In this document: in pieces, positions 4,243 to 27,108 of the stretch
Layout of the letters: each line of letters opens with the position of its first letter
Position numbering within the stretch: position 1 is the first letter of the stretch
Assembly (NCBI RefSeq): GCF_000010625.1
Contig: NC_010296.1
Location: 3,420,001 to 3,452,000 of the forward strand
Source of the DNA: Microcystis aeruginosa NIES-843
GTDB taxonomy: Bacteria; Cyanobacteriota; Cyanobacteriia; Cyanobacteriales; Microcystaceae
Reading direction: 5' to 3'
Length of the DNA stretch: 32,000 bases
Translations under genes and position numbers: made by a program
The notes under the pieces: generated by a model
What the model was told of the DNA's origin: nothing
Database searches by the model: none
The model's input: only the letters and a program-made list of their open reading frames with translations

Positions 4243-4461
4243 TTAGGGTTTGCGGCAAAAAGTACGGGCGAAGCATTCGGGCAATAACCTATCGGTGAAA
4301 CCGTAGATTTTTTATCCGAATGCTTCGCCCCTACAGGACGCGGGCCGATGAAGACGCAAGGTTTTGAAGCACGATTCTCTCAAAATCTTGCACCTGTTTC
4401 GCGAGAAAAGCCACAAAACCCTTACCTTGCCTACATTTCACCTTTATTCAGCACACCCTAA
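4243..4461 (+). mobile_element. MITE family 2-related element abutting the previous copy
   Basis: Starts TTAGGGTTTGCGGCAAAAAG and ends TTATTCAGCACACCCTAA. It contains a perfect 15-bp hairpin, GGGCGAAGCATTCGG ... CCGAATGCTTCGCCC (about 4265-4331). Confidence 0.55.
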
Positions 4462-4509
4462 TTAGGTGGGTTAAACTAAGTTAAACACCCGCAATTATCC
4501 CGTTTATTT

Positions 4510-5232
4510 TTAAGGTAAAATCAAAAAACTTCCCTGACAGAAAAGAGTTTGATCGTCAAGAATAAAAGATTTAATCTCCACATCTTTGCCTAAATCGACG
4601 GTAAAGGGTTGCAAATCAATAGATAAATCTGGGGCTAAACCTTGCCATTGTCGGGGACTAATCCCTAAAGTGCGGGCATCTTCTAGGGTAATATCAGCGC
4701 TAAAAATTACTTCCGCACCTGTTTCTCTGTGGCCGAGAAGACAGAAATAACCCTGATTTAAGAGAACATTTTTCCAGTTAAAACGCTGTTGTGAGATAAT
4801 TTCTCTGGCGTTAACAACTCCGTTATTTTCTAGGGAAAAAATTAGTAAATCGGCCAAAGCATTAACTAAAATAGTCGAGGCGATCGAATTATTTAAATCC
4901 TGCTCGTTAATTTCTACCTCACCGCTAACCCGAATAGGTTCCAAAATTTTTAGGGGTTTCCCTCGCAAAACCTGCCCGATATTAAGACGGATATTTTCCC
5001 CTCTTAATTGCGCTTTACCCAGATGTAAACCCTGATAAATCGCTTTTCCTACGGCTAAAAATACCCCGGGGATATAACCGCGCAAAATTTGCCGATCATG
5101 ACCTTGCAGCTGCATTTCTAAATCTTCTATCTGTTCTACTTGCGTTCTTAAGAACAGACGTACTGCTGTCGGCAAAACCTTACTAATAATCTCACTTTGA
5201 GTATTGACCCACATAAACGTTATCTCACTCAC
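4510..5232 (-). CDS. DUF2993 (LmeA-like)-family protein
   Basis: 240-aa ORF. The pattern LRGKPLKILEPIRVSGEVEINEQDLNNSIAS resembles cyanobacterial DUF2993 proteins. Assigned from memory, not from a search. Confidence 0.5.
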   Translation of the reverse strand: MSEITFMWVNTQSEIISKVLPTAVRLFLRTQVEQIEDLEMQLQGHDRQILRGYIPGVFLAVGKAIYQGLHLGKAQLRGENIRLNIGQVLRGKPLKILEPIRVSGEVEINEQDLNNSIASTILVNALADLLIFSLENNGVVNAREIISQQRFNWKNVLLNQGYFCLLGHRETGAEVIFSADITLEDARTLGISPRQWQGLAPDLSIDLQPFTVDLGKDVEIKSFILDDQTLFCQGSFLILP

Positions 5233-7351: not shown

Positions 7352-7431
7352 GAAAAAGAAGAACCTCTGGGAGTCTTGCCGTGTTTCGACCCCAAAGGTT
7401 CCTCTTATGCTGAACTTATACTCCTCACACG
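7352..7431 (-). ncRNA. candidate ~80-nt sRNA, or attenuating leader of the ytxH operon
   Basis: Lies downstream of a TTGACA-N18-TAATAT promoter. It ends in an 11-bp hairpin (7401-7391 / 7371-7361) followed by UUCUUUUU. The single imperfect stem position is a U-G wobble on the minus strand but a C-A mismatch on the plus strand. Confidence 0.35.
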
Positions 7432-7437
7432 ATATTT

Positions 7438-7467: not shown

Positions 7468-7551
7468 GGGGTTTATGAAATTTTTTCCATAGACTTCTGG
7501 CCAAATTAATTTTTTAGGGTCGGTAGGCGCTCTTGCCGGGGACGGCTATCA

Positions 7552-8874
7552 TCGAAAATTTGGGTCTGAAACCCCGTCGTTCTACGACGGCTTTACTGTT
7601 AAATATTAGCACATTTACGAAATATATGCTAAAATGTGAGGTATGGAAAAAGCCTATTCGTTTCGATTTTACCCAACACCAGAACAAGAGTGGCTATTGC
7701 GGCGCACATTGGGCTGTGTAAGATTAGTTTACAACAAAGCTCTCCACGAACGAACACAAGCTTGGTACGAAAAGCAAGAAAGAGTAGGCTACGCTCAAAC
7801 TTCTTCAATGCTAACCCATTGGAAAAAACAAGAAGAATTAAACTTTTTAAACGAAGTAAGCTGTGTACCTTTACAACAAGGGTTAAGACACCTACAAACA
7901 GCTTTTACTAATTTCTTTGCTGGTCGTACTAAGTATCCTAACTTTAAGAAAAAACATCAAGGAGGAAGTGCTGAATTTACTAAATCTGCTTTTAAGTTCA
8001 AAGACAAACAAATCTATTTAGCCAAATGCACAGAACCTTTACCTATTCGATGGTCAAGACAAATACCAGAAGCTTGTGAACCAAGTACAGTAACGGTCAG
8101 ATTACATCCTTCTGGACGTTGGCATATCTCAATAAGATTTGATGACCCAACGATTAAGCCATTACCAGTAACAGATAAAGCCATTGGAATTGACTTAGGA
8201 ATTAGTAGCCTCGTGATTACCAGCGATGGTGACAAAGTATCTAATCCTGAGCATTTTAACAAGCATTATCGGAGACTGCGAAGAGCATCTAAAAGTCTTT
8301 CTCGAAAACAGAAAGGGTCAAAAAATCGGGAAAAAGCGAGAATCAAAGTAGCAAGGATTCACGCTCAAATTACTGATAGTAGAAAAGACCATTTACATAA
8401 GCTAACCACTCAATTAGTTCGTGAAAACCAAACGGTTGTGGTTGAGAATTTAGCCGTCAAGAATATGGTCAAAAACCCCAAGTTATCTCAGGCAATATCT
8501 GATGTAAGTTGGGGAGAAATCACTCGACAATTAGCCTATAAATGCCGTTGGTATGGGAGAAATTACATCGAAATAGATAGATGGTTTCCTAGCTCTAAAA
8601 GGTGTAGTAATTGTGGGTATATTGCCCTTGAAAATGCCGTTAAATGTTCGAGAATGGGACTGTCCAGACTGTGGGACTCACCATGACCGAGATATTAACG
8701 CCAGTAAAAACATTTTGGCCGCAGGGCTTGCGGTGTCAGTCTGTAGAGCGACCATAAGACCAGAACAGAGTAAATCTGTTAAGGCAGGTGCGAAAAATCC
8801 TTCGGGAAAGAAGCAGAAACCTAAATCGTGAGGTTTGGGAATCACCGTCCGTTTACGGCGGTGAGGATGTCAAA
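7552..8874 (+). mobile_element. IS200/IS605-family, tnpB-only (IS1341-type) element, copy 1
   Basis: The LE has the subterminal hairpin CCGTCGTTCTACGACGG. The RE has the hairpin CACCGTCCGTTTACGGCGGTG and ends GGATGTCAAA. No tnpA and no TIRs are present. Ends were defined by where homology among the three copies stops. Confidence 0.8.
7643..8831 (+). pseudogene. tnpB: tnpB (RNA-guided endonuclease), +1 frameshift near 8622-8640
   Basis: The 347-aa ORF and the 72-aa ORF (8613..8831) together match the intact 395-aa copy. Here ATTGCCCTTGAAAATGCCG (19 nt) replaces ATTGTGAAAAAGCTGCCG (18 nt). The second CxxC and the RuvC-III HDRD motif are therefore out of frame. Confidence 0.85.
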
Positions 8875-12287: not shown

Positions 12288-12306
12288 TCACCCCGACAGA
12301 ATTAAT

Positions 12307-12439
12307 GGCTCTTCTCGATTTTGTCTGATAGTTTTTGCTTATGGAATCGTGGAATGCTTATCCGGCAAGACTTTAAGCACTATTTTGACGGATATTCTAT
12401 CAGTATAGACCTCGTTTCCACACAGAAACCAGAAGAGCC
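12307..12439. mobile_element. possible 133-bp MITE (TIR GGCTCTTCT / AGAAGAGCC)
   Basis: 9-bp perfect terminal inverted repeat that shares GGCTCTTC with the 187-bp MITE family. There is no second copy in the window to confirm it. Confidence 0.35.
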
Positions 12440-12451
12440 AGTTCTTGCCTT

Positions 12452-15884: not shown

Positions 15885-16110
15885 TTTGACATCCTCGCCG
15901 CCGTAAAACGGACGGCGATTCCCAAACCTCACGATTTAGGTTTCTGCTTCTTTCCCGAAGGATTTTTCGCACCTGCCTTCACAGATTTACTCTGTTCTGG
16001 TCTTATGGTCGCTCCACAGACTGACACCGCAAGCCCTGCGGCCAAAATATTTTTACTGGCGTTAATGTCTCGGTCATGGTGAGTCCCACAGTTCGGACAG
16101 TCCCACTCTC
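15885..16110 (-). ncRNA. predicted omega (right-end) RNA of the intact IS copy (5' limit approximate)
   Basis: In characterised TnpB systems the guide RNA scaffold overlaps the tnpB 3' end and the RE. The RE hairpin here shows a compensatory A:T to G:C change between copies 1 and 2. Confidence 0.4.
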
Positions 16111-17116
16111 GAACATTTAACGGCAGCTTTTTCACAATATACCCACAATTACTGCACCGTTTAGAACTGGGAAAACATCTATCTATTTCGATGTAATTTT
16201 TCCCGTACCAACGGCATTTATAGGCTAATTGTCGGGTGATTTCTCCCCAGCTTACATCAGATATTGCCTGAGATAATTTCGGGTTTTTGACCATATTCTT
16301 AACGGCTAAATTCTCAACCACAATCGTTTGGTTTTCACGAACTAATTGAGTGGTTAGCTTGTGTAAATGGTCTTTCCTGCTATCGGTGATTTGAGCGTGA
16401 ATCTTGGCTACTTTGATTCTTGCTTTTTCCCGATTCTTTGAGTCTTTCTGTTTTCTAGAAAGATTTTTTTGTGCTTTTCGCAACCTCTGATAATGTTTCT
16501 TAAAATGCTTAGGATTAGATACTTTATCGCCATCGCTGGTACTCACGAGGCTACTAATTCCTAAGTCAATTCCAATGGCTTTATCTGTTACTGGTAAAGG
16601 CTTAATCGTTGGGTCATCAAATCTTATTGAGATATGCCAACGTCCAGAAGGATGTAATCTGACCGTTACTGTACTTGGTTCACATCCGTCTGGTATTTGT
16701 CTTGACCATCGAATAGGTAAAGGTTCTGTGCATTTAGCTAAATAGATTTGTTTGTCTTTAAATTTAAAAGCAGATTTGGTAAATTCGGCACTTCCTCCTT
16801 GATGTTTTTTCTTAAAGTTAGGATACTTAGTACGACCAGCAAAGAAGTTAGTAAAAGCTGTTTGTAGGTGTCTTAAACCTTGTTGTAAAGGAACACAGCT
16901 AACCCCATTCAAAAACTCTAATTCTTCTTGTTTTTTCCACTCAGTCAACATCGAAGAAGTTTCAGTATATCCTACTCTTTCTTGTCTTTCGTACCATGCT
17001 TGTGTTCTGAGATGGAGAGCTTTATTGTAAACTAATCTTACACAGCCCAAGGTGCGCCGCAATAGCGACTCTTGTTCTGCTGTGGGGTAAAATCGAAACG
17101 AATAGGCTTTCTCCAT
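15929..17116 (-). CDS. tnpB: TnpB RNA-guided endonuclease (395 aa, apparently intact)
   Basis: RuvC-I IGIDLG, RuvC-II TIVVENL, zinc finger CSNCGY...CPNCG, and Ruv[16 protein letters not shown] are all in one frame. Confidence 0.9.
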   Translation of the reverse strand: MEKAYSFRFYPTAEQESLLRRTLGCVRLVYNKALHLRTQAWYERQERVGYTETSSMLTEWKKQEELEFLNGVSCVPLQQGLRHLQTAFTNFFAGRTKYPNFKKKHQGGSAEFTKSAFKFKDKQIYLAKCTEPLPIRWSRQIPDGCEPSTVTVRLHPSGRWHISIRFDDPTIKPLPVTDKAIGIDLGISSLVSTSDGDKVSNPKHFKKHYQRLRKAQKNLSRKQKDSKNREKARIKVAKIHAQITDSRKDHLHKLTTQLVRENQTIVVENLAVKNMVKNPKLSQAISDVSWGEITRQLAYKCRWYGKNYIEIDRCFPSSKRCSNCGYIVKKLPLNVREWDCPNCGTHHDRDINASKNILAAGLAVSVCGATIRPEQSKSVKAGAKNPSGKKQKPKS

Positions 17117-17276
17117 ATCTCACATTCTAGCATATATCGTGTAAATGCGCTACTATTTCATAGTAAAGCCGTCCTTTGAGAACGGGGTTTCAGAGCCAAA
17201 ATTGGCGATGACACTTGAGAACCAGTGATTTTTTCTCCTAAACCCAAGTTTTTCTGCTGGCAATTCCTTATTATCT

Positions 17277-17828
17277 ATGTCCTTGACTATGCCTCAGTCT
17301 GCCGAGTCCTCCACGGGTGAGGATTTACCCCTAGCTATCTCACCCAGTAACGAGCAGTTAGAGAATATTAATAGCTATTTAAACCTGATTTTGGCAGCTT
17401 TAGTCTCTCTAGCTAATTTAGACTCCGAGTCTATCACCCAAGCAGCCCAAGAATTAGCCTTAGATCTGGATACAAGCGATCGCCTAGTTGCCCACTACTG
17501 GCAACCCCAGTCAAACCTCTCCCTAGCGGACATCCGTTCTCTAGTTCTCCTCCTCTGTCATCTAGCCCAAAAAAAGCAAGAGTTAATCCGTCGCGCCGTA
17601 ATTCTCTTGGAACAAGTGGGAACTCAAGGACAAGAACCGGTCAAAACCACGCTTTTGGGCAATTATATCGATAATTTTCGCTTAAAATACCCAGAAATAT
17701 CGGAAAATAATCTCAGCAATTCTAGCCTGATTTCCCTAGCCTGGAAATTATTAATCGATTTATTGTTCTACAGCAGCCCCCGCAGTCATCTCCTTCTCTG
17801 GCACACCCTTTTGGCAAGTAAAAAGTAA
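17277..17828 (+). CDS. DUF3038-family protein (cyanobacteria-specific)
   Basis: 183-aa helical protein placed immediately upstream of a DUF4335-type gene, which I recall as a conserved pair. Assigned from memory. Confidence 0.5.
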   Translation: MSLTMPQSAESSTGEDLPLAISPSNEQLENINSYLNLILAALVSLANLDSESITQAAQELALDLDTSDRLVAHYWQPQSNLSLADIRSLVLLLCHLAQKKQELIRRAVILLEQVGTQGQEPVKTTLLGNYIDNFRLKYPEISENNLSNSSLISLAWKLLIDLLFYSSPRSHLLLWHTLLASKK

Positions 17829-17834
17829 AAAGGC

Positions 17835-17890
17835 TATCAGTTATCAGTTATCAGTTATCAGTTATCAGTTATCAGTTATCAGTTATCAGA
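17835..17890. repeat. tandem heptamer (TATCAGT)x8
   Basis: Direct reading of the sequence. Confidence 0.95.
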
Positions 17891-17950
17891 TGTAAGTTTT
17901 CAGTTCACCGATTACTGTTTACTGATCACTGAAAAAAAGCTTCCCAGTTC

Positions 17951-19339: not shown

Positions 19340-19476
19340 GCTGTAAGCTGCTCGCGGGTTGAAATTGCTTGTTGAGACGAGGCAACGGGCAAGAGGCAAG
19401 ACCCCCCAACCCCTCAGGGGGGTAAGATACCTGCCAAGAATAAGGAAAAATGGTATTGTAAAGTTTCAATACAAAT

Positions 19477-19680
19477 ATGGTCATATATAGTCATTCATGG
19501 CAATATGTACAGACAAAACTATCAGACTATGCAAAAAAAACAGGAATAAGTTATCGAACGGCTTGGAGGTGGTGGAAACAAGGGAATTTAACAGGCTATC
19601 AATTGCCTTCTGGTACAATTATGACAACGGATGACAACCCTTCAAAACCCGACGCTGAGTTAAAAGACAACGGACAATAA
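19477..19680 (+). pseudogene. tnpA: IS607-type tnpA reduced to its N-terminal HTH (serine-recombinase core deleted)
   Basis: KLSDYAKKTGISYRTAWRWWKQGNLTGYQLPSGTI matches the N-terminal HTH of IS607-family serine transposases. No catalytic-Ser domain follows. The stop overlaps the tnpB start (TAATG). Confidence 0.6.
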
Positions 19681-20897
19681 TGTTAGTAGCCGAAAGACAC
19701 ATTATCAAGAAAGGACATCGATTTTGGGCTGAGATAGATAATTTATCTTGGCAGTCTAAAAATCTCTACAACTCAGCCAATTATTTAATCCGACAAAACT
19801 TCATTTATGGTCATGGCTATTTGACCTATAATCAGATGGCCTCTCTCATGAAAAAGACAGAACAGTATCAAGCTTTACCTGCTAAAGTTTCCCAACAAGT
19901 TTTAAGAGGATTAGACTGGAACTGGAAATCATTTTTTGCCGCTTCATCGGAGTTTAAAAGTCACCCCGATAAATTTCTGGTCAAACCCAAAATCCCTGGC
20001 TATAAGGAGCAAAAAAAAGGAAGAAATCTCTTAGTTTACACGATTCAATCCCTAAGCAAAGTAGGTCTTAGGCAAGGATTGGTCAAACTATCAGGTACTT
20101 CAATTGCCTTGCCGACAAGAGTGGCGGAGCGCATAGCAGAAGTTAGAATAGTTCCTAAATGTGATTGTTATGTAATCGAGGTAATTTATGAGAAAACTGA
20201 ACAGTTCTTAGCTCCTAATGAAAAGATAGCTGCGATAGATTTAGGCATAGATAATTTCATGGCTGTAACTTCAAATCAACCGGACTTTATCCCTTTGTTG
20301 ATTAATGGCAGACCGTTAAAAAGCCTGAATCAATTTTATAACCAACGTCGAGCTAAGTTACAATCTCTGTTAAATCGTCAAAGTTCCCAGAGGATTCGCC
20401 GTTTAACCCGTTGCCGTAATCAGAAAGTAGATGATTATCTTCATAAAGCTAGTCGTTATTTGGTTAAGCTCTTAGTTGACCAACAAATTACTACTTTAGT
20501 TATTGGTAATAATCCAGGGTGGAAACAAGAAGTGAACTTAGGAAAAGTCAACAATCAAAAATTTGTGACCATCCCTCATGCTCGATTAATTGAGATGATT
20601 AGTTATAAATGTCAATTAGTAGGAATCTCTGTGATTCTTCAAGAAGAATCCTATACCTCAGCTTCTAATTTTTTGAATGACGATCCTCTCCCCGTTTATG
20701 GACAGATAACTGAAAAGCCAGTGTTTTCAGGAAAAAGAATTTCGCGAGGGTTATATCGTACAGATAGAGGATTTCTTTGTCAATCTGATGTCATGGGTTC
20801 CTACAATATTTTACGAAAAGCATTCCCAAATGCGTTTAACTGCTATGGGATAGAGAGGTGCGTAGTTCACCCAAGGAGAATCAATCTCTCGAAGTAA
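19680..20897 (+). CDS. tnpB: TnpB-family protein (IS607-associated type, no zinc-finger cysteines)
   Basis: RuvC-I AAIDLGIDNF and RuvC-III-like QSDVMGSYNILRK are present. The RuvC-II position reads TLVIGNNPGWKQE, with Gly where the other tnpB in this window has Glu. Both CxxC pairs are absent. Confidence 0.85.
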   Translation: MLVAERHIIKKGHRFWAEIDNLSWQSKNLYNSANYLIRQNFIYGHGYLTYNQMASLMKKTEQYQALPAKVSQQVLRGLDWNWKSFFAASSEFKSHPDKFLVKPKIPGYKEQKKGRNLLVYTIQSLSKVGLRQGLVKLSGTSIALPTRVAERIAEVRIVPKCDCYVIEVIYEKTEQFLAPNEKIAAIDLGIDNFMAVTSNQPDFIPLLINGRPLKSLNQFYNQRRAKLQSLLNRQSSQRIRRLTRCRNQKVDDYLHKASRYLVKLLVDQQITTLVIGNNPGWKQEVNLGKVNNQKFVTIPHARLIEMISYKCQLVGISVILQEESYTSASNFLNDDPLPVYGQITEKPVFSGKRISRGLYRTDRGFLCQSDVMGSYNILRKAFPNAFNCYGIERCVVHPRRINLSK

Positions 20898-20986
20898 AAG
20901 TGAAGGGAATTTCTGAAATGGAATTCAGTCTGTCTATATTTGACTATACTTTTACTAACTATCAGATGCTCTATTAGAGATTAAGA

Positions 20987-21032
20987 AAAGCTGTCGTAGA
21001 ACGACGGGGTTTTCAACCCAAATTTTCGCTCA
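20987..21032 (-). repeat. solo, inverted copy of the IS1341-type left-end hairpin segment
   Basis: The reverse complement CGAAAATTTGGGTTGAAAACCCCGTCGTTCTACGACAGCTTT is ~93% identical to LE bases 23123-23164 and 7554-7595. Homology stops after ~42 nt. Confidence 0.7.
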
Positions 21033-21067
21033 ATGTTCCGCTATGGTAAAAGGGTTACGGAGTCCTC

Positions 21068-23089
21068 CTAGCACCCGCACACCACACGAAAACCGTAGTA
21101 GTGGTAGGTGCTGACGCGCCTAGCGAAGAAGCTGCGGAAAGCGGAACGACAGAGACCTGGATTGCCGTACCAAGAACCGCCCCGTAATAGAGAACGATTA
21201 TTATTCTCAGTAATCCACGCCGACCCGTCCTCTGGCGCTCCGGTATAGTTATCGTGCCAATCGTCCGCGCACCATTCCCAGACTTGCCCGTGCATATCGT
21301 AAAGTCCGAAAGCGTTGGGGGGAAACTGCCCGACGGGAGTGGTTTGTTGTCGATAAGTACCCTTTTTACCGTCGGCGTAGGTATAGTTTCCGTGATAGTT
21401 CGCTATTTCGGTGGAGAGGGTAGCCCCGAAAGCAAAAGGAGTGGTCGTTCCTGCGCGACAAGCGTATTCCCACTGTGCCTCGCTGGGGAGATGATAATCT
21501 TTCTGAGTAAGCTTGGATAGCCGTTTACAGAATTCTACGGCTTGATACCAGTTCACACACTCTACCGGTCGATTATTTCCCTTGAAGTACGAGGGGTCGA
21601 GGGATAGGTCGATGTCGATTTTCGCCTGAGATGCGATGATTCGCCATTGCTCTTGGGTAATGGGATATTTGCCCATGTAGAAAGAGGGAACGGTGACTCG
21701 ATGCTGCGGTTTTTCGTAGTTATGCCCCTCACCATCGGGCGATCCCATGAGGAAAGTACCGCCAGGGATATAGACTATTTCTAGGTCGATATTATTGCCG
21801 AGGTTTTCGCTCTTTTGAAAACCTTTTCCCAGGCGAGGTTTGATTATATTCCCTCTGGGATCAACGGTGATGATCTCGAAGGAGAATTCTTTCCCTTTTT
21901 CCTCCTCCTGACTACAATCTTCCTCTTCTACTCCCCGCTTATTTTCCTCTCGCTCTTTTTCTTTCTCAAATCGTCTTGCTAATTGCTGTTCGTAGGCTTC
22001 TCGAACTTTCTTTTGCTTGGCTTTAAGAAGATCGCTATAGGGTTGAATTAACTCTTTTTTGAGATCGATATTCGGTAAGCGGACTTCGTAGTAGGGATCG
22101 AGATTTAGATAATAAATATCGATATAAAAAGCCAAGAGAATTTGGTGAATTTTGATAATTACCGCTCTAATAATCAAGAGGATTTCATCTTCGGTTTTTC
22201 CTGCCTTTAATAATTCCCGTTCTACTTCTCGCCAATTCCATTCGATCGGTGAGAAAGACATCGCTTGCTTATCCTGCATTTTCCAAGAGGCAACTCGAAA
22301 GGTCACGGCATCCGATCGAATGTCTGTATAGATTATATATACAGGTACGCAGGACAACAAACCATGTAACCGTTCGATTTCGATTTCCTCGATTGGTTGC
22401 TTGAAATAATCTCCAAAAAATTTAACGGGATATAGTTGATCATTAACTGAATAGTAATCCGCAAGAAAAGAACTCACCTTTCGCATCTCTAGCTTGAAAT
22501 CTAACTTCCTCATGGCAGCTAGGGAGCGATCGCTCGCTACACTGGGTAAACAGGCTAATATCAAGAGAGTTTGTTGATATTTCTTGAGAATCTGCTCGGT
22601 TTCAAAGCGACTCAACTGCGATAACCATGTATCTTTGTCCCACTCAGCTTGAATTTCTTGCAGCTTTAACTCAATTTCTTTTTCTTGCTGTTCTCTTAGT
22701 AGTTCTTGCCGTAGATAACTCAGGTTACGTTGTTCTTTTTGGATGGCGATTTTGATTTCTTTCAATTCAAGAGAAAGATTTTCTAAACCGATTCTTTCCC
22801 TAGGGATTTCATTATCTGTTTCTTGTTGCAGCAATTCGCACTTGAATTGCTGCAACGCCAATTCAAGTGCGAATTGGCGTTGTTTTCTTTGCAGTTGTAG
22901 GGATTGATTATCGAGTTCCAGCTTTTTTTTGTAGTAAGATAACTCGGCTTTTTTGACTTCGCTATTATTTTCCACTACGGAGGCACCATGACGAGATGCT
23001 TGATCATCATTAGATAGAAGGCGCTCCATCAGCTTCAGTGCCACCCGGGAGATACCAACAACAATTTGCTCGATCATTACCGCGTCCAT
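21068..23089 (-). CDS. 673-aa protein: N-terminal helix, long coiled coil, unassigned alpha/beta module, acidic linker, C-terminal FGE-sulfatase (SUMF1-like) domain
   Basis: FGE-domain motifs: IPGGTFLMGSP, HRVTVPSFYMGKYPITQEQW, PVECVNWYQAVEFCKRLS, LPSEAQWEYACRAG, FGLYDMHGQVWEWC, RGGSW. A GAGGAG Shine-Dalgarno lies 8 nt upstream of the ATG. Confidence 0.85.
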   Translation of the reverse strand: MDAVMIEQIVVGISRVALKLMERLLSNDDQASRHGASVVENNSEVKKAELSYYKKKLELDNQSLQLQRKQRQFALELALQQFKCELLQQETDNEIPRERIGLENLSLELKEIKIAIQKEQRNLSYLRQELLREQQEKEIELKLQEIQAEWDKDTWLSQLSRFETEQILKKYQQTLLILACLPSVASDRSLAAMRKLDFKLEMRKVSSFLADYYSVNDQLYPVKFFGDYFKQPIEEIEIERLHGLLSCVPVYIIYTDIRSDAVTFRVASWKMQDKQAMSFSPIEWNWREVERELLKAGKTEDEILLIIRAVIIKIHQILLAFYIDIYYLNLDPYYEVRLPNIDLKKELIQPYSDLLKAKQKKVREAYEQQLARRFEKEKEREENKRGVEEEDCSQEEEKGKEFSFEIITVDPRGNIIKPRLGKGFQKSENLGNNIDLEIVYIPGGTFLMGSPDGEGHNYEKPQHRVTVPSFYMGKYPITQEQWRIIASQAKIDIDLSLDPSYFKGNNRPVECVNWYQAVEFCKRLSKLTQKDYHLPSEAQWEYACRAGTTTPFAFGATLSTEIANYHGNYTYADGKKGTYRQQTTPVGQFPPNAFGLYDMHGQVWEWCADDWHDNYTGAPEDGSAWITENNNRSLLRGGSWYGNPGLCRSAFRSFFARRVSTYHYYGFRVVCGC

Positions 23090-23211
23090 TAGACTAACTC
23101 CTCATACTGTAGTGTTTTCATCGAAAATTTGGGTCTGAAACCCCGTCGTTCTACGACGGCTTTACCGTTAAATATTAGCGCATTTACACGATATATGCTA
23201 GAATGCGAGAT

Positions 23212-24313
23212 ATGGAAAAAGCCTATTCTTACCGATTTTACCCAACACCAGAACAAGAGTCGCTATTGCGGCGCACTTTGGGCTGTGTAAGATTAGTTTA
23301 CAACAAAGCTCTCCACGAACGAACACAAGCTTGGTATGAAAGACAAGAAAGAGTAGGCTACGCTCAAACTTCTGGTTCTTCGGTTTGTCTTATGCAATGG
23401 ACGGGGTTATAAGGAATGAAACCTTTATAGAGACAGACATTGCCGCAATTTTTGTCAATTGTTGGCGATCTGGAGCGAACTAATCAATTAAATCTCTTGC
23501 CAGATAAGGATTTAGTCGATTTATGCCCCCATGTCGAACCATACCAAGTCCCGAAGAGCCTTTACAACAAGGGTTAAGACATTTACAAACAGCTTTTACT
23601 AATTTCTTTGCTGGTCGGACTAAGTATCCTAACTTTAAGAAAAAACATCAGGGAGGAAGTGCCGAATTTACCAAGTCTGCTTTTAAATTTAAAGACAAAC
23701 AAATCTATTTAGCCAAATGCACAGAACCTTTACCTATTCGATGGTCAAGAAAAATACCAGAAAGCTGTGAACCAAGCACAGTAACAGTCAGATTACATCC
23801 CTCAGGACGTTGGCATATTTCAATTAGATTTGATGACCCAACGATTAAGCCATTACCAGTAACAGATAAAGCCATCGGAATTGACTTAGGAATTAGTAGC
23901 CTAGTAATTACCAGCAATGGCGATAAAGTATCTAATCCTAAGCACTTTAAAAAGCATTATCGGAGACTGCGAAAGGACCCAAAAAGTCTTTCTCGAAAAC
24001 AGAAAGGCTCAAAAAATCGGGAAAAAGCGAGAATCAAAGTAGCCAAGATTCACGCCCAAATTACTGATAACAGAAAAGACCATTTACACAAGCTAACCAC
24101 TCAATTAGTCCGTGAAAACCAAACGATTGTGGTTGAGAACTTAGCCGTCAAGAATATGGTCAAAAACCCGAAATTATCTCAGGCAATATCTGACGTTAGT
24201 TGGGGAGAAATCACCCGACAATTAGCCTATAAATGCCGTTGGTACGGGAAAAATTACATCGAAATAGATAGATGGTTTCCTAGCTCTAAAAGGTGTAGTA
24301 ATTGCGGGTATAT
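23212..24313 (+). pseudogene. tnpB: tnpB remnant: MITE insertion with ~65-bp deletion, plus 3' truncation
   Basis: MEKAYSYRFYPTPEQE... runs to 23373. The 187-bp MITE replaces the codons for SMLT.WKKQEEL.FLN.VSCV. The frame resumes at 23561 (PLQQGLRHLQ) and ends at ...CSNCGYI. Confidence 0.85.
23374..23560. mobile_element. 187-bp MITE, copy B
   Basis: Same length and orientation as 1195..1381 (TIR GGTTCTTCG / CGAAGAGCC). There is no TSD, consistent with an associated deletion. Confidence 0.8.
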
Positions 24314-24742
24314 CTGGACTTCCCCCGTATAAACATACTAGCTATGGCTAAAAGTCTTACAGAGCCTGAGTTAAAGCCATATAATACTAATGGACTACTG
24401 GACACAAAATCCTGAAGTCCTTACGCAGATAGGGTTTGAGGCAAAAATTTTCAAATTTGACCTTTCGACCATTATAGCTTGTTTCGGGGCAGAAAACCAT
24501 CAAAAACATGGCTACAGAGGGAATCGCTGACTCTAGAGATTAATGACACCATCTGTTACAATAAGGTTAGCGATCACTATACAGCCAACTCTACGGAATC
24601 GCTCTACTCCAGATACAGTCAACGGTACAGCCATTTTCAAGGGAAAAATGTACCCAGTAGCGGCTTGTCAATTTTTTCTGAGAAGCTCCAGGCAGTAAGG
24701 GTTTTGTTGATTTTTTAGTATTTCTGTATGGGGGAAGTCCAG
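24314..24742. mobile_element. 429-bp non-autonomous TIR element
   Basis: Termini CTGGACTTCCCCCGTA / TATGGGGGAAGTCCAG (about 15 of 16 complementary). No credible transposase ORF lies inside. Confidence 0.6.
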
Positions 24743-24990
24743 ATAAAAATGGTTATCGGCTTAGTCTGATCAAAGATTGTCAGGCAATCTTCGTGGTGTC
24801 TATCGGCGGACCGGCCGCCGCTAAGATGATTCAAGGTGGTGTTTATCCGGTGAAAAAAGATGCAGGTGGTCAAGCGCGGGAAATTTTGGCGGATTTACAG
24901 CGAGTGATTCAAACTTCGCCGCCACCCTGGATGGCCAAAGCTCTCGGCGTGGCTGATCGGCAAAGAGTGAAAAATTACAAGGGTTCTTAA
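24721..24990 (+). pseudogene. orphan 3' gene fragment of unknown family
   Basis: The frame opens directly at the TIR element boundary (…DKNGYRLSLIKDCQAIFVVSIGGPAAAKMIQGGVYPVKK…). No convincing start or RBS, and no family recognised. Confidence 0.25.
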
Positions 24991-25018: not shown

Positions 25019-25086
25019 GAGACTCGGAGACTCCGAGACTCCGAGACTCCGAGACTCCGAGACTCCGAGACGGGAGACTCCGAGAC
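25019..25086. repeat. tandem octamer (GAGACTCC) array, ~8 units
   Basis: Direct reading. It is bounded by a 12-bp inverted repeat, GCAAAATTAATT (24999-25010) / AATTAATTTTGC (25168-25179). Confidence 0.9.
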
Positions 25087-25590: not shown

Positions 25591-26205
25591 CTAATAACCG
25601 CGCCAAACACCAACCAAAACCCCTTGCACTTGTACTTGTTCGGTATTGGCTGTAATTGGTTGGTATTTTTGATTGGAGGGTTGGAGAGTGATGATTTCGC
25701 CTTCTTGGTAGAAACGTTTTAAAGTAGTGCCGTGGCCTTCGACTCTAGCGGCGACGATTTCCCCATTGGAGACCGCTTCATTACCCGTGAGAGAACGCAT
25801 AATCACCAGATCCCCATCGGCAATATGATCCTCGATCATACTGTCTCCGGAAACCCGCAGAGCATAACAGTCTTGACTGCGTTGCAACAGGTTAGAAAGA
25901 TCGAGTTTTTCTTCCACATCGGTGAAGGGTTCCACTAAACCACCAGCAGCGATCGCACCCAGAACCGGTAAACCTTGCACTGGTTGTTTGAGAATCCGCA
26001 GGGTGCGTGCTTTTCCTTCTGTCCAATCAATATAGCCTTTGGCGCGTAAACGTTCTAAACGGCTTTGAATCGGTGCGGGAGAGCGTAAATTCATCGCTCG
26101 CATCATTTGCCGGATGGAAGGGGCGTGCTGAGTAGTGCTAATGTACTCAATTAGCCAGTCGTACAACTCCTGTTGCGCTTGAGTAAGGGATTCGAGGTTA
26201 GTCAT
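25591..26205 (-). CDS. lexA: LexA repressor (S24 peptidase)
   Basis: wHTH N-terminus (SIRQMMRAMNLRSPAPIQSRLERLRAKGYI), Ala-Gly site (GAIAAGG), catalytic Ser (VSGDSM) and Lys (TLKRF). Confidence 0.9.
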   Translation of the reverse strand: MTNLESLTQAQQELYDWLIEYISTTQHAPSIRQMMRAMNLRSPAPIQSRLERLRAKGYIDWTEGKARTLRILKQPVQGLPVLGAIAAGGLVEPFTDVEEKLDLSNLLQRSQDCYALRVSGDSMIEDHIADGDLVIMRSLTGNEAVSNGEIVAARVEGHGTTLKRFYQEGEIITLQPSNQKYQPITANTEQVQVQGVLVGVWRGY

Positions 26206-26417: not shown

Positions 26418-27108
26418 GTTACAGTAGAGCAGGAAGTCGCCTTCCCACCCCCTGCTTCAAAACCGGACTTACGACTTTCGCCGTATCCGGCTCCTGAGTA
26501 ACTAGGCTACTGTCATTAGTAGAATAATAATGGGAATTATTATTTCCTTGTCTATTCAACCCTCTTGGCTGTATCCCCACCAGACAAGATTGTTGGTTTT
26601 AGGGCGTATATGACCGTTGATTGTTGCTTAGACTTCCTAGTTACCCGTCCTTTGTCAGCATATCTTTGATATTACTCAAAGCCTTGGCTTTTAAGGACAT
26701 CCTCTCCCTCTATTGACTTGCGGATGGTTTCCTACTGCCCCGAACGGGCAGAGTCAATCAGGGTTACTTCGTTCCCTATAACCATTGGTTGAACCCTTAG
26801 GATGATACTGTCCACAACAGAGTAACGGGAATGCCTTACTGATAGTGGTATGAGCTATCAGCCCCAACTCTGTTAACTTTTGTTTCGAGCCTGTCAGCCT
26901 TTTGGCTCGTGGGTGTTGACGATGGTTAATTCGTATCTTCGCCCCAGGGCTATCCATAAGTTCTGGCTCAACGGGTTTCTGATTTAGGCTATCAGATACC
27001 GCTTTTTTTTCCTCGCTCACTACCTCAGATGTACCAAGTCTAAAGCAGCAGGAAATGCCGTCACTCTAGGCATCTAGAGGACAGGACTAAGGTTATTACT
27101 AACCCGCA
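26418..27108 (-). mobile_element. ORF-less group II intron (691 nt)
   Basis: 5' GUGCG at 27108-27104. Canonical domain V at 26493-26460. Domain VI has a bulged A (26425) 7 nt from the 3'-terminal AAC. Domain IV is a short AU hairpin with no RT/maturase ORF. Confidence 0.8.
26460..26493 (-). ncRNA. group II intron domain V
   Basis: GAGCCGGAUACGGCGAAAGUCGUAAGUCCGGUUU is 34 nt. It has the AGC catalytic triad at positions 2-4, 9+5 bp helices split by a 2-nt AA bulge, and a GAAA tetraloop. Confidence 0.85.

Follow-up and report, generated by a model that had tools for sequence, protein, structure and literature searches.

What kind of protein is encoded by a gene that stands between two mobile elements on the chromosome of Microcystis aeruginosa NIES-843, and what have those elements to do with it? 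The gene lies on the reverse strand of a 32,000-nucleotide stretch (NC_010296.1, positions 3,420,001 to 3,452,000; here, the window) and encodes a protein of 673 residues. By exact look-up, the protein is identical to WP_012266595.1, BAG03627.1 (NIES-843) and BBH38783.1, and it is annotated as a "formylglycine-generating enzyme family protein" of Microcystis. Chromosome AP019314.1 of Microcystis (GCA_003945305.1), which we take to be that of M. viridis NIES-102, also encodes exactly this protein, and near-identical alleles are found in many Microcystis genomes and bloom metagenomes. We think it probable that the product is a binding protein in which a lectin domain, of the type diversified by diversity-generating retroelements (DGRs) and with a variable region that is now retired, is joined to a portable N-terminal module, and that the insertion sequences (ISs) on either side of the gene are independent of it and of each other.

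The list of open reading frames (ORFs) and an AlphaFold structure model of the 673-residue protein (132-sequence alignment, mean pLDDT of 86.3, pTM of 0.76) divide the gene as listed below, with coordinates given in the window. An earlier AlphaFold run on a 10-sequence alignment was of low confidence (pLDDT of 48.6).

21068 to 23089, reverse strand: gene for the 673-residue protein, ATG start (ORF list)

23012 to 23089, reverse strand: residues 1 to 26, hydrophobic or amphipathic N-terminal helix (AlphaFold helix 2 to 26)

22634 to 22963, reverse strand: residues 43 to 152, coiled-coil or helical-hairpin region with helices 43 to 88 and 96 to 152 (AlphaFold, pLDDT of 74 to 92)

22070 to 22627, reverse strand: residues ~155 to 340, alpha/beta core of the N-terminal module (AlphaFold, pLDDT of 90 to 98; conserved)

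21893 to 22063, reverse strand: residues 343 to 399, charged linker helix with EKEKEREE, leading from the N-terminal module to the C-terminal domain (AlphaFold)

21080 to 21781, reverse strand: residues 437 to 670, formylglycine-generating enzyme (FGE)-sulfatase or C-type-lectin-fold domain of the noncatalytic DGR variable-protein type (Pfam and PDB matches)

21095 to 21172, reverse strand: residues 640 to 665, putative former DGR variable region (aligned to the variable and template repeats of a relative)

The ORF and part boundaries given in a preliminary description, made from the sequence alone, were reproduced here, and the EKEKEREE linker that it had singled out lies in the charged helix. 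Residues ~40 to 150, in contrast, had been described as an uninterrupted coil and are modeled instead as two long helices interrupted at residues 89 to 95. The N-terminal helix has a maximum hydrophobic moment of 0.58 and a maximum KD19 of 1.5, no signal peptide was detected in the protein, and charged linkers comparable to that of residues 343 to 399 are present in aligned relatives. The gene product would be a two-module, nonenzymatic binding protein and is probably cytoplasmic.

Evidence that the C-terminal domain was once diversified comes from a relative. The closest homologue outside the Microcystis cluster (P0003) is 72% identical overall, and its gene lies on a 5.5-kb metagenome contig (L090), where it is followed by bAvd (PF22296) and then by an RVT_1 reverse transcriptase (RT). 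The 3' end of that gene (2786 to 2913) and a copy downstream of the RT (4451 to 4578) form a 128-nt repeat with 86% identity. All 15 mismatches between the two copies fall at template adenines, such that 15 of 32 A positions differ versus 0 of 85 non-A positions. The repeat pair is the defining signature of a DGR, namely, a variable region (VR) and its template repeat (TR). Residues 640 to 665 of the Microcystis protein align to both, and the 3' end of the Microcystis gene differs from the L090 TR at 22 of 32 template-A positions and at 21 of 85 other positions (Fisher p = 2.5e-5).

A second orthologue (P0004, on contig L103) is ~85% identical in the domain core and has a VR equal in length to that of the Microcystis gene. 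Residues 640 to 665 differ from L103 at 62% of amino acids and the remaining domain at 15%; over the L103 and L090 comparisons together, the range is 60 to 62% in residues 640 to 665 versus 15 to 17% in the core. Moreover, nucleotide differences in residues 640 to 665 are distributed over codon positions 1, 2 and 3 as 11/13/3 in comparison with L103 and as 7/14/7 in comparison with L090, versus 18/10/49 for the domain core in comparison with L103. The bias toward positions 1 and 2 is the inverse of normal divergence and is what mutagenesis of AAC codons yields. An orthologue with a cognate DGR, together with VR differences that fall mostly at the first two codon positions, gives the gene the features of a former DGR target. 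We propose that in an ancestor, a DGR consisting of Avd, RT and a TR directly downstream would have rewritten AAC- and AAT-type codons and diversified the ligand-binding surface.

DGR adjacency is documented for one relative only. Among four FGE-type members, it is found in L090; L101 has a RES-type toxin-antitoxin pair downstream and no DGR, the L102 contig is short, and L103 has a fragment of OrfB_IS605 downstream (1634 to 1936) in place of Avd and RT and retains the 3' hairpin terminator of the relatives. We note that L103 is a second case in which an IS605-family element sits at the expected position of the DGR cassette.

Does the region still vary in Microcystis? Residues 640 to 665 show 0 to 1 amino acid changes among Microcystis alleles, and the copy of strain PCC 9806, which is 6% divergent with 41 differences overall, has only T661A within them. 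No second copy of the VR and no template repeat was found in the 32-kb window, and neither the window nor the flanking genes of any Microcystis locus examined include an ORF for RT or Avd. BLAST with the L090 RT and Avd against the ORFs of loci L001 to L091 gave a match in L090 only, and a preprint (doi 10.1101/2021.01.26.428298) assigns every RT that it found in NIES-843 to group II introns. Moreover, the sequence directly after GFRV has diverged in Microcystis, where relatives keep a GC-rich end common to VR and TR, and the Microcystis 3' flank lacks the strong hairpin plus T run that follows the gene in L090 and L103. Finally, a metagenome scan with a stringent AAY-codon TR pattern returned only a TR of the L090 type (L104) and none with the extra codon of the Microcystis type, a weak negative because the TR sequence was assumed.

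With no RT or Avd at the loci examined and no hypervariability of the VR among Microcystis alleles, the gene does not belong with the active DGR targets. From these comparisons we conclude that it was probably once a DGR target and that its binding surface is now frozen in Microcystis, where the protein would bear a single binding specificity. A 47-nt left-end remnant of an IS200/IS605 element occupies the position where the DGR cassette would begin, and an IS event may have taken out the cassette.

Proteins of this kind have been described before. According to Vallota-Eastman et al. 2020 (PMC7517822), a C-terminal C-type lectin (CLec) domain joined to grafted N-terminal domains, often near transposases, is found in cyanobacteria in the variable proteins of DGRs, in remote targets and in undiversified "VP (variable protein) homologs," and Kaur et al. 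2020 (PMC7159879) present the FGE-sulfatase (FGS) domain as always C-terminal and linked to DGRs. The Microcystis protein shares with those accounts the C-terminal CLec/FGS domain, a variable stretch encoded at the very 3' terminus, an unrelated N-terminal graft and transposase genes close by, and its closest homologue has an Avd-RT-TR cassette with adenine-specific mismatches. It differs in having no RT, Avd or TR at the loci examined and a fixed VR, hence a former target. We read the protein as a CLec VP homolog from a cyanobacterium, with an N-terminal domain family that is absent from the libraries checked and from the passages on VP homologs. The grafted domains named there (kinase, CHAT, TIR, vWA and others) do not include the module found here.

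The domain itself belongs to a family that includes enzymes. FGE-sulfatase (PF03781) is the sole match in a Pfam scan of the 673-residue protein (residues 437 to 670, E = 1.2e-57); it scores 196 bits versus a cut-off of 23.3, covers profile positions 4 to 254 of 255 and stops 3 residues short of the protein end. The best PDB sequence match is PvdO (5hha, E = 4e-40), and the second best is TvpA (2y3c, E = 8e-22 with the full protein). When aligned to human FGE (2aft, a Cys336Ser mutant), GGSWYGNPGLC lies opposite GGSYMSHRSYC. Thus, Cys336 of the human enzyme corresponds to Gly642 and Cys341 to Cys647, and the catalytic pair is reduced to one cysteine, as the preliminary description had read from the sequence. 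Scores against NCBIfam equivalogs were all under the cut-off (PvdO, 169 of 500 bits; EgtB, 65 of 360; OvoA, 54 of 400; SenA, 49 of 420), and the Pfam scan found no protein kinase domain at E <= 1. The cysteine pair is incomplete and the enzyme equivalog scores are far too low; the domain is noncatalytic and most likely binds a ligand. The earlier assignment was right to that extent and missed the specific type, a DGR-type CLec variable domain. The stretch RGGSW...C...GFRV to which it had drawn attention is the former variable region itself; therefore, the single cysteine is the normal state of the DGR-type CLec subclass, and TvpA aligns likewise.

Human SUMF1 (FGE) and PvdO share the Pfam family and the overall fold with the Microcystis protein, but they differ from it at the Cys336 position (Gly642 here), in equivalog scores that fall far short and in multidomain architecture. 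TvpA of Treponema denticola (PDB 2y3c) shares the RGGSW...C...GFR framework and has a cysteine at the second position only, as here. Passages of PMC7159879 describe a beta extension in TvpA-like FGS domains, and strands 401 to 409 and 415 to 424 of the low-confidence first model may be its counterpart. TvpA is, however, a lipoprotein with an active DGR, whereas the Microcystis protein has no detected signal peptide, an N-terminal module of 400 residues and no DGR.

What is the N-terminal module? The preliminary description could not assign it and called the protein an orphan. A search with residues 1 to 424 returned relatives in which the module is joined to other C termini (WD40, GUN4, DUF1566 and FGE). 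A core profile (residues 120 to 350 plus relatives) run against 1.84 billion representative proteins returned at least 241 clusters at 50% identity with E <= 1e-3, of which 120 were at E <= 1e-30. The module is therefore a family and not an orphan. It is always N-terminal, starting a median of ~100 residues into the protein and followed by a median of 313 residues. The C termini of the 149 best representatives, sorted by four jackhmmer seed profiles (WD40, FGE/CLec, GUN4 and DUF1566), were as follows.

WD40: 34 of 149

FGE/CLec: 21 of 149

GUN4: 12 of 149

DUF1566: 6 of 149

Fewer than 80 residues after the module: 15 of 149

Unmatched by the four seed profiles: 61 of 149

Sampled members of the unmatched group have TPR, Sel1, dynamin-like, septin/AIG1-like or CobW GTPase, or SH3_3 domains. 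Named hosts are almost all cyanobacteria (Microcoleus, Tychonema, Okeania, Dapis, Kamptonema, Lyngbya and Microcystaceae), with several paralogues per genome.

The module has no match in Pfam, NCBIfam, PADLOC, PHROGs or PDB sequences. A ferritin in the PDB profile search was a nonmatch (E = 0.68). Foldseek of the module model against PDB and BFVD gave nothing at E <= 1e-3; the best PDB matches, YjjX/VC0702, were rejected (E of ~5e-3, TM of 0.14 to 0.30), and BFVD gave none. Residues 1 to 345 are thus a family that lacks library annotation, with a predicted fold that has no match among known structures. The preliminary description had left the module unassigned and had asked whether it recurs with other effector or sensor domains; no described family fits it, and it does recur with domains of the sensor type. 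The predicted alpha/beta core has 5 strands (175 to 179, 222 to 225, 250 to 257, 262 to 269 and 282 to 284) and a long C-terminal helix (300 to 330). Only F229, W286, D324, Y326 and L328 are conserved at 90% or more across 132 sequences, and neither a catalytic dyad nor any other conserved pattern suggestive of an active site was seen. Moreover, His315 is replaced by Tyr in most Microcystis alleles, which disfavors an enzyme. A hydrophobic or amphipathic first helix is present in most of the 120 family representatives checked. Across 80 module-encoding loci there are no conserved partner genes; the neighbors are housekeeping genes (ABC transporter parts, aminotransferase, M24 peptidase and XPB-type helicase) held in common through species relatedness.

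The module may be an oligomerizing and possibly membrane-associating scaffold for output or localization and not an enzyme. An output role is proposed; the module has the place that the caspase domain takes in orthocaspases, whose C-terminal domains are of a similar range. Cyanobacterial orthocaspases likewise join an N-terminal "output" domain to an interchangeable C-terminal WD40, GUN4, FGE-sulfatase or TPR domain. Like the module family, orthocaspases are enriched in Microcystis and filamentous cyanobacteria. Unlike them, the module has no caspase p20 domain and is no known enzyme.

How the ISs relate to the gene can be followed by comparing strains. Three elements flank the gene.

20987 to 21033, reverse strand: solo IS200/IS605 left-end (LE) remnant (inverted repeat; alignment to the LEs of full IS copies)

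23122 to 24313, forward strand: degenerate TnpB-only IS200/IS605 copy, with TnpB in pieces (23203 to 23412 and 23523 to 24332), breaking off at 24313

19457 to 20959, forward strand: second, unrelated TnpB element, with a 67-residue helix-turn-helix (HTH) ORF (19477 to 19680) and a 405-residue TnpB (19680 to 20897)

The LE remnant was recognized as an inverted repeat of 47 nt with 87% complementarity (20987 to 21033 versus 23117 to 23163), the 26-nt core of which occurs in 3 copies in the window versus 0 in 100 shuffles. The inverted LE-hairpin copy that had been reported past the stop codon is therefore real; it consists of the hairpin CCGTCGT-TCT-ACGACAG followed by CUUUUCUU and lies 34 nt after the stop. 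The remnant is found in every Microcystis copy examined (L081 to L100) at a fixed distance from the stop. Because it accompanies the gene in IS-free strains and at the other locus of PCC 9806, it is an old feature of the 3' flank that predates the flanking ISs. We note that in PCC 9806-type copies, the hairpin loop is flipped from TCT to AGA (L092 8078 to 8104 versus 20987 to 21012), while the stem and flanks are kept. The flanking elements, like IS200/IS605 TnpB-only (IS1341-type) elements in general, encode OrfB_IS605/TnpB and have left ends with a common subterminal hairpin, but the hairpin 3' of the gene is a 47-nt LE fragment with no IS body and is conserved with the gene and not with an IS.

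The hairpin was also taken for the terminator of the gene. Together with AGCUUUUCUU, it passes a simple terminator scan, but its stem is of 5 bp, such hits occur at chance-level density (4 found versus 2.9 expected) and the fold computed for the 3' flank has ordinary stability (z = 0.15). The LE remnant may act as a weak terminator, a role that is possible because the hairpin terminator of the relatives is missing here.

On the 5' side, the degenerate IS copy is similar to the intact copy at 15885 to 17211, and its start, mapped against IS-free strains, is at 23122, 32 nt before the ATG, in agreement with the earlier claim of an IS left end just upstream of the start codon. The TnpB-only element occurs in three copies that are 87 to 93% identical including the LE (7549 to 8874, forward; 15885 to 17211, reverse; 23118 to 24313, forward), and only the copy at 15885 to 17211 has the full TnpB of 395 residues. 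Precomputed Pfam matches on the flanking TnpB are HTH_OrfB_IS605, OrfB_IS605 and Cas12f1-like_TNB. Two of the left ends, that of the intact copy and that of the degenerate one at 23118, are preceded by TCAT, which is likely the target motif of the element. In the second, unrelated element, the HTH ORF is presumably, by the look of its sequence, the truncated N terminus of an IS607-type recombinase.

Other Microcystis strains have the gene without these insertions. L096 matches the window at 99.4% from 23121 to 20960 (L096 5969 to 8130) and again from 19456 to 19184 (L096 8128 to 8400). Since the two matches abut at 20960/19456, the element with the 405-residue TnpB inserted cleanly right past the solo LE and is specific to some strains; it is absent from strains L096 to L100 and from strains such as FACHB-1757. 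In these IS-free strains, PFOR, LexA, DUF2389 and Nitro_FeMo-Co genes lie on one side of the gene and DUF4335, DUF3038 and Na/H exchanger genes on the other. Thus, the LE remnant, the 5' IS and the IS with the 405-residue TnpB are separate events, and both flanking ISs are recent and strain specific. The gene had been said to be boxed in by inverted IS hairpins. That picture does not hold, as the LE remnant is in all copies and each IS came separately; moreover, the same neighborhood exists without ISs in other strains, an arrangement that the preliminary description itself had named as grounds for abandoning its view.

The 5' IS was considered as a simple insertion, and native upstream DNA was not found on its far side. 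That DNA (L096 5768 to 5901) corresponds instead to 12306 to 12440 of the window at 92% identity, 9 to 11 kb away, which indicates an IS-associated rearrangement of the locus. Consensus scans find a promoter-like site, TTCCCA-17-TACAAT, 65 to 93 nt upstream of the ATG in IS-free strains, beyond the insertion point, and none within 23000 to 23600 of the window. The claim that the gene has no room for a native promoter is thus right for this strain, where the candidate promoter appears to have been displaced by the IS. By parting the gene from that promoter, the 5' IS may have reduced expression or left it to be driven from inside the IS.

The PCC 9806 copy (L092) lies at another locus, preceded by Iso_dh, NifU and DUF3386 genes and followed by a second CLec paralogue. 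There (HE973238.1, 6001 to 10742), the gene stands in tandem with a 663-residue CLec/FGE paralogue and then an 83-residue GUN4 fragment. The paralogue has a different coiled-coil N terminus, no N-terminal module and a VR-like C terminus of its own. In PCC 9717, the gene is split into fragments of 442 and 226 residues (P0322 and P0319), and several metagenome alleles are truncated; hence, the gene is dispensable in some strains.

Several further features of the window were recorded. A 435-nt element (24311 to 24745) with 30-nt terminal inverted repeats (24311 to 24340 and 24716 to 24745) begins exactly where the degenerate IS copy ends and looks like an insertion of the miniature inverted-repeat transposable element type. 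An Rfam match to group II introns (RF00029, 55 bits, 26418 to 26495, reverse) lies between lexA (25591 to 26205) and the gene for PFOR, and no ORF for an intron RT was noticed near it. An Rfam match to the Cyano-1 small RNA (RF01701, 54.9 bits, 7352 to 7434, reverse) lies just upstream of the LE of the IS copy at 7549. Short tandem repeats occur at 17821 to 17911 and ~25030 to 25080: the heptamer TATCAGT, ~12 times, after the DUF3038 gene, and the octamer GAGACTCC, ~7 times.

Could the gene still be diversified in trans, as a remote target of a DGR elsewhere in the genome? Cyanobacteria commonly have remote targets that share VR/TR homology (PMC7517822), and the VR equivalent in Microcystis retains the framework of the VR of its relatives. 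The VR equivalent is, however, essentially identical among the alleles read, which differ by as much as 6% overall. Together with the report of group II intron RTs only in NIES-843 (doi 10.1101/2021.01.26.428298), the divergence of the 3' homing region past GFRV and the return of an L090-type TR alone from the metagenome scan, weak as that negative is, this makes an active remote target very unlikely. Database names suggest another function altogether, that of a catalytic member of the SUMF1/EgtB/PvdO superfamily or a serine/threonine kinase: source entries read "SUMF1/EgtB/PvdO family nonheme iron enzyme" and "Serine/threonine protein kinase," and PvdO tops the PDB sequence matches. The tests run already contradict both functions, as glycine occupies one position of the FGE cysteine pair, equivalog scores for PvdO, EgtB, OvoA and SenA reach 49 to 169 bits versus cut-offs of 360 to 500, Pfam finds no kinase domain and the closest relative is a DGR variable protein. 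We regard such an enzyme as the most improbable of the explanations considered.

Scarcely more probable is that two inverted IS left ends make the gene mobilizable cargo within an IS-bounded composite unit. The gene has indeed been found at two Microcystis chromosomal loci with ~95 nt of upstream and ~150 nt of downstream sequence, the latter including the solo LE, and the contigs of many assemblies end at its flanks. The relocated unit is nevertheless not bounded by LEs, as the 5' LE is missing in IS-free strains and at the PCC 9806 locus. IS200/IS605 elements transpose by means of a left end paired with a right end in one orientation on one strand, and a pair of inverted left ends, as found here, would not serve. 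Moreover, the TnpB of the degenerate 5' IS is broken, and no TnpA is encoded in the window. A different proposal concerns function, that the protein is a stand-alone immune or abortive-infection sensor-effector in which the CLec domain would sense an invader and the N-terminal module would oligomerize and damage the membrane, by analogy with the N-terminal helix of plant coiled-coil nucleotide-binding leucine-rich repeat (CC-NLR) resistosomes but without an NTPase. We consider this unlikely, though less so than the other three. The domains that accompany the module (WD40, TPR, Sel1, GUN4, CLec and GTPases) match the sensor repertoire of cyanobacterial orthocaspases and conflict systems (PMC7159879), the helix at the extreme N terminus is kept across the family, several module paralogues occur per genome, and the surroundings of the gene are plastic and rich in ISs, with the gene itself pseudogenized in some strains (as in the PCC 9717 fragments). 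The FGE domain had likewise been compared with sensor modules of cyanobacterial conflict and signaling proteins. No defense signature was found, however: PADLOC defense-protein models matched the 673-residue protein with 0 families at E <= 1, and the 80 loci show housekeeping neighbors with no conserved partner or defense island. Conserved polar residues are few, no known pore-forming or toxin fold was matched, and a VR that is frozen across strains is unlike an arms-race receptor. By the same analogy, the module might be a new class of ligand-triggered output domain that acts on membranes through oligomerization and has no NTPase switch, a single-chain analogue of CC-NLR or orthocaspase proteins, but this we hold to be slightly less likely than the immune role.

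We therefore return to a retired DGR target as the preferred explanation, and several points weigh against it. The enrichment of differences in residues 640 to 665 could partly be ordinary diversifying selection on a binding surface, although the codon-position bias and the cognate TR in a relative favor DGR action over selection alone. Genome-wide absence of a DGR is drawn only from the literature statement on NIES-843 and the invariance of the VR, with 32 kb examined here. Circumstantial evidence alone ties the IS remnant to the removal of the DGR cassette, the candidate promoter comes only from consensus scans, and an output or scaffold role for a module that has no structural analogue is conjecture. 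That the protein is a binding protein with a once-programmable and now fixed CLec surface is nonetheless well supported.

Databases name the protein an FGE-family enzyme or a serine/threonine kinase; a more apt name would be that of a binding protein with a lectin fold and a history of DGR diversification. The IS hairpins around the gene reflect layered and partly strain-specific insertions and not functional design. Here, a retired DGR target can be set beside a relative that still diversifies, and the comparison could reveal which specificity was retained. Moreover, the N-terminal module family, with a confident predicted structure, no solved match in the PDB and receptor partners of the orthocaspase type, is a concrete target for experiment. 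If the module is indeed triggered by ligand, it would couple directly to WD40, TPR, Sel1, GUN4, CLec or DUF1566 domains or to GTPases of the dynamin, septin or CobW type, and the Microcystis protein would be a version of the death or immunity type, a DGR-programmed receptor locked onto one target.

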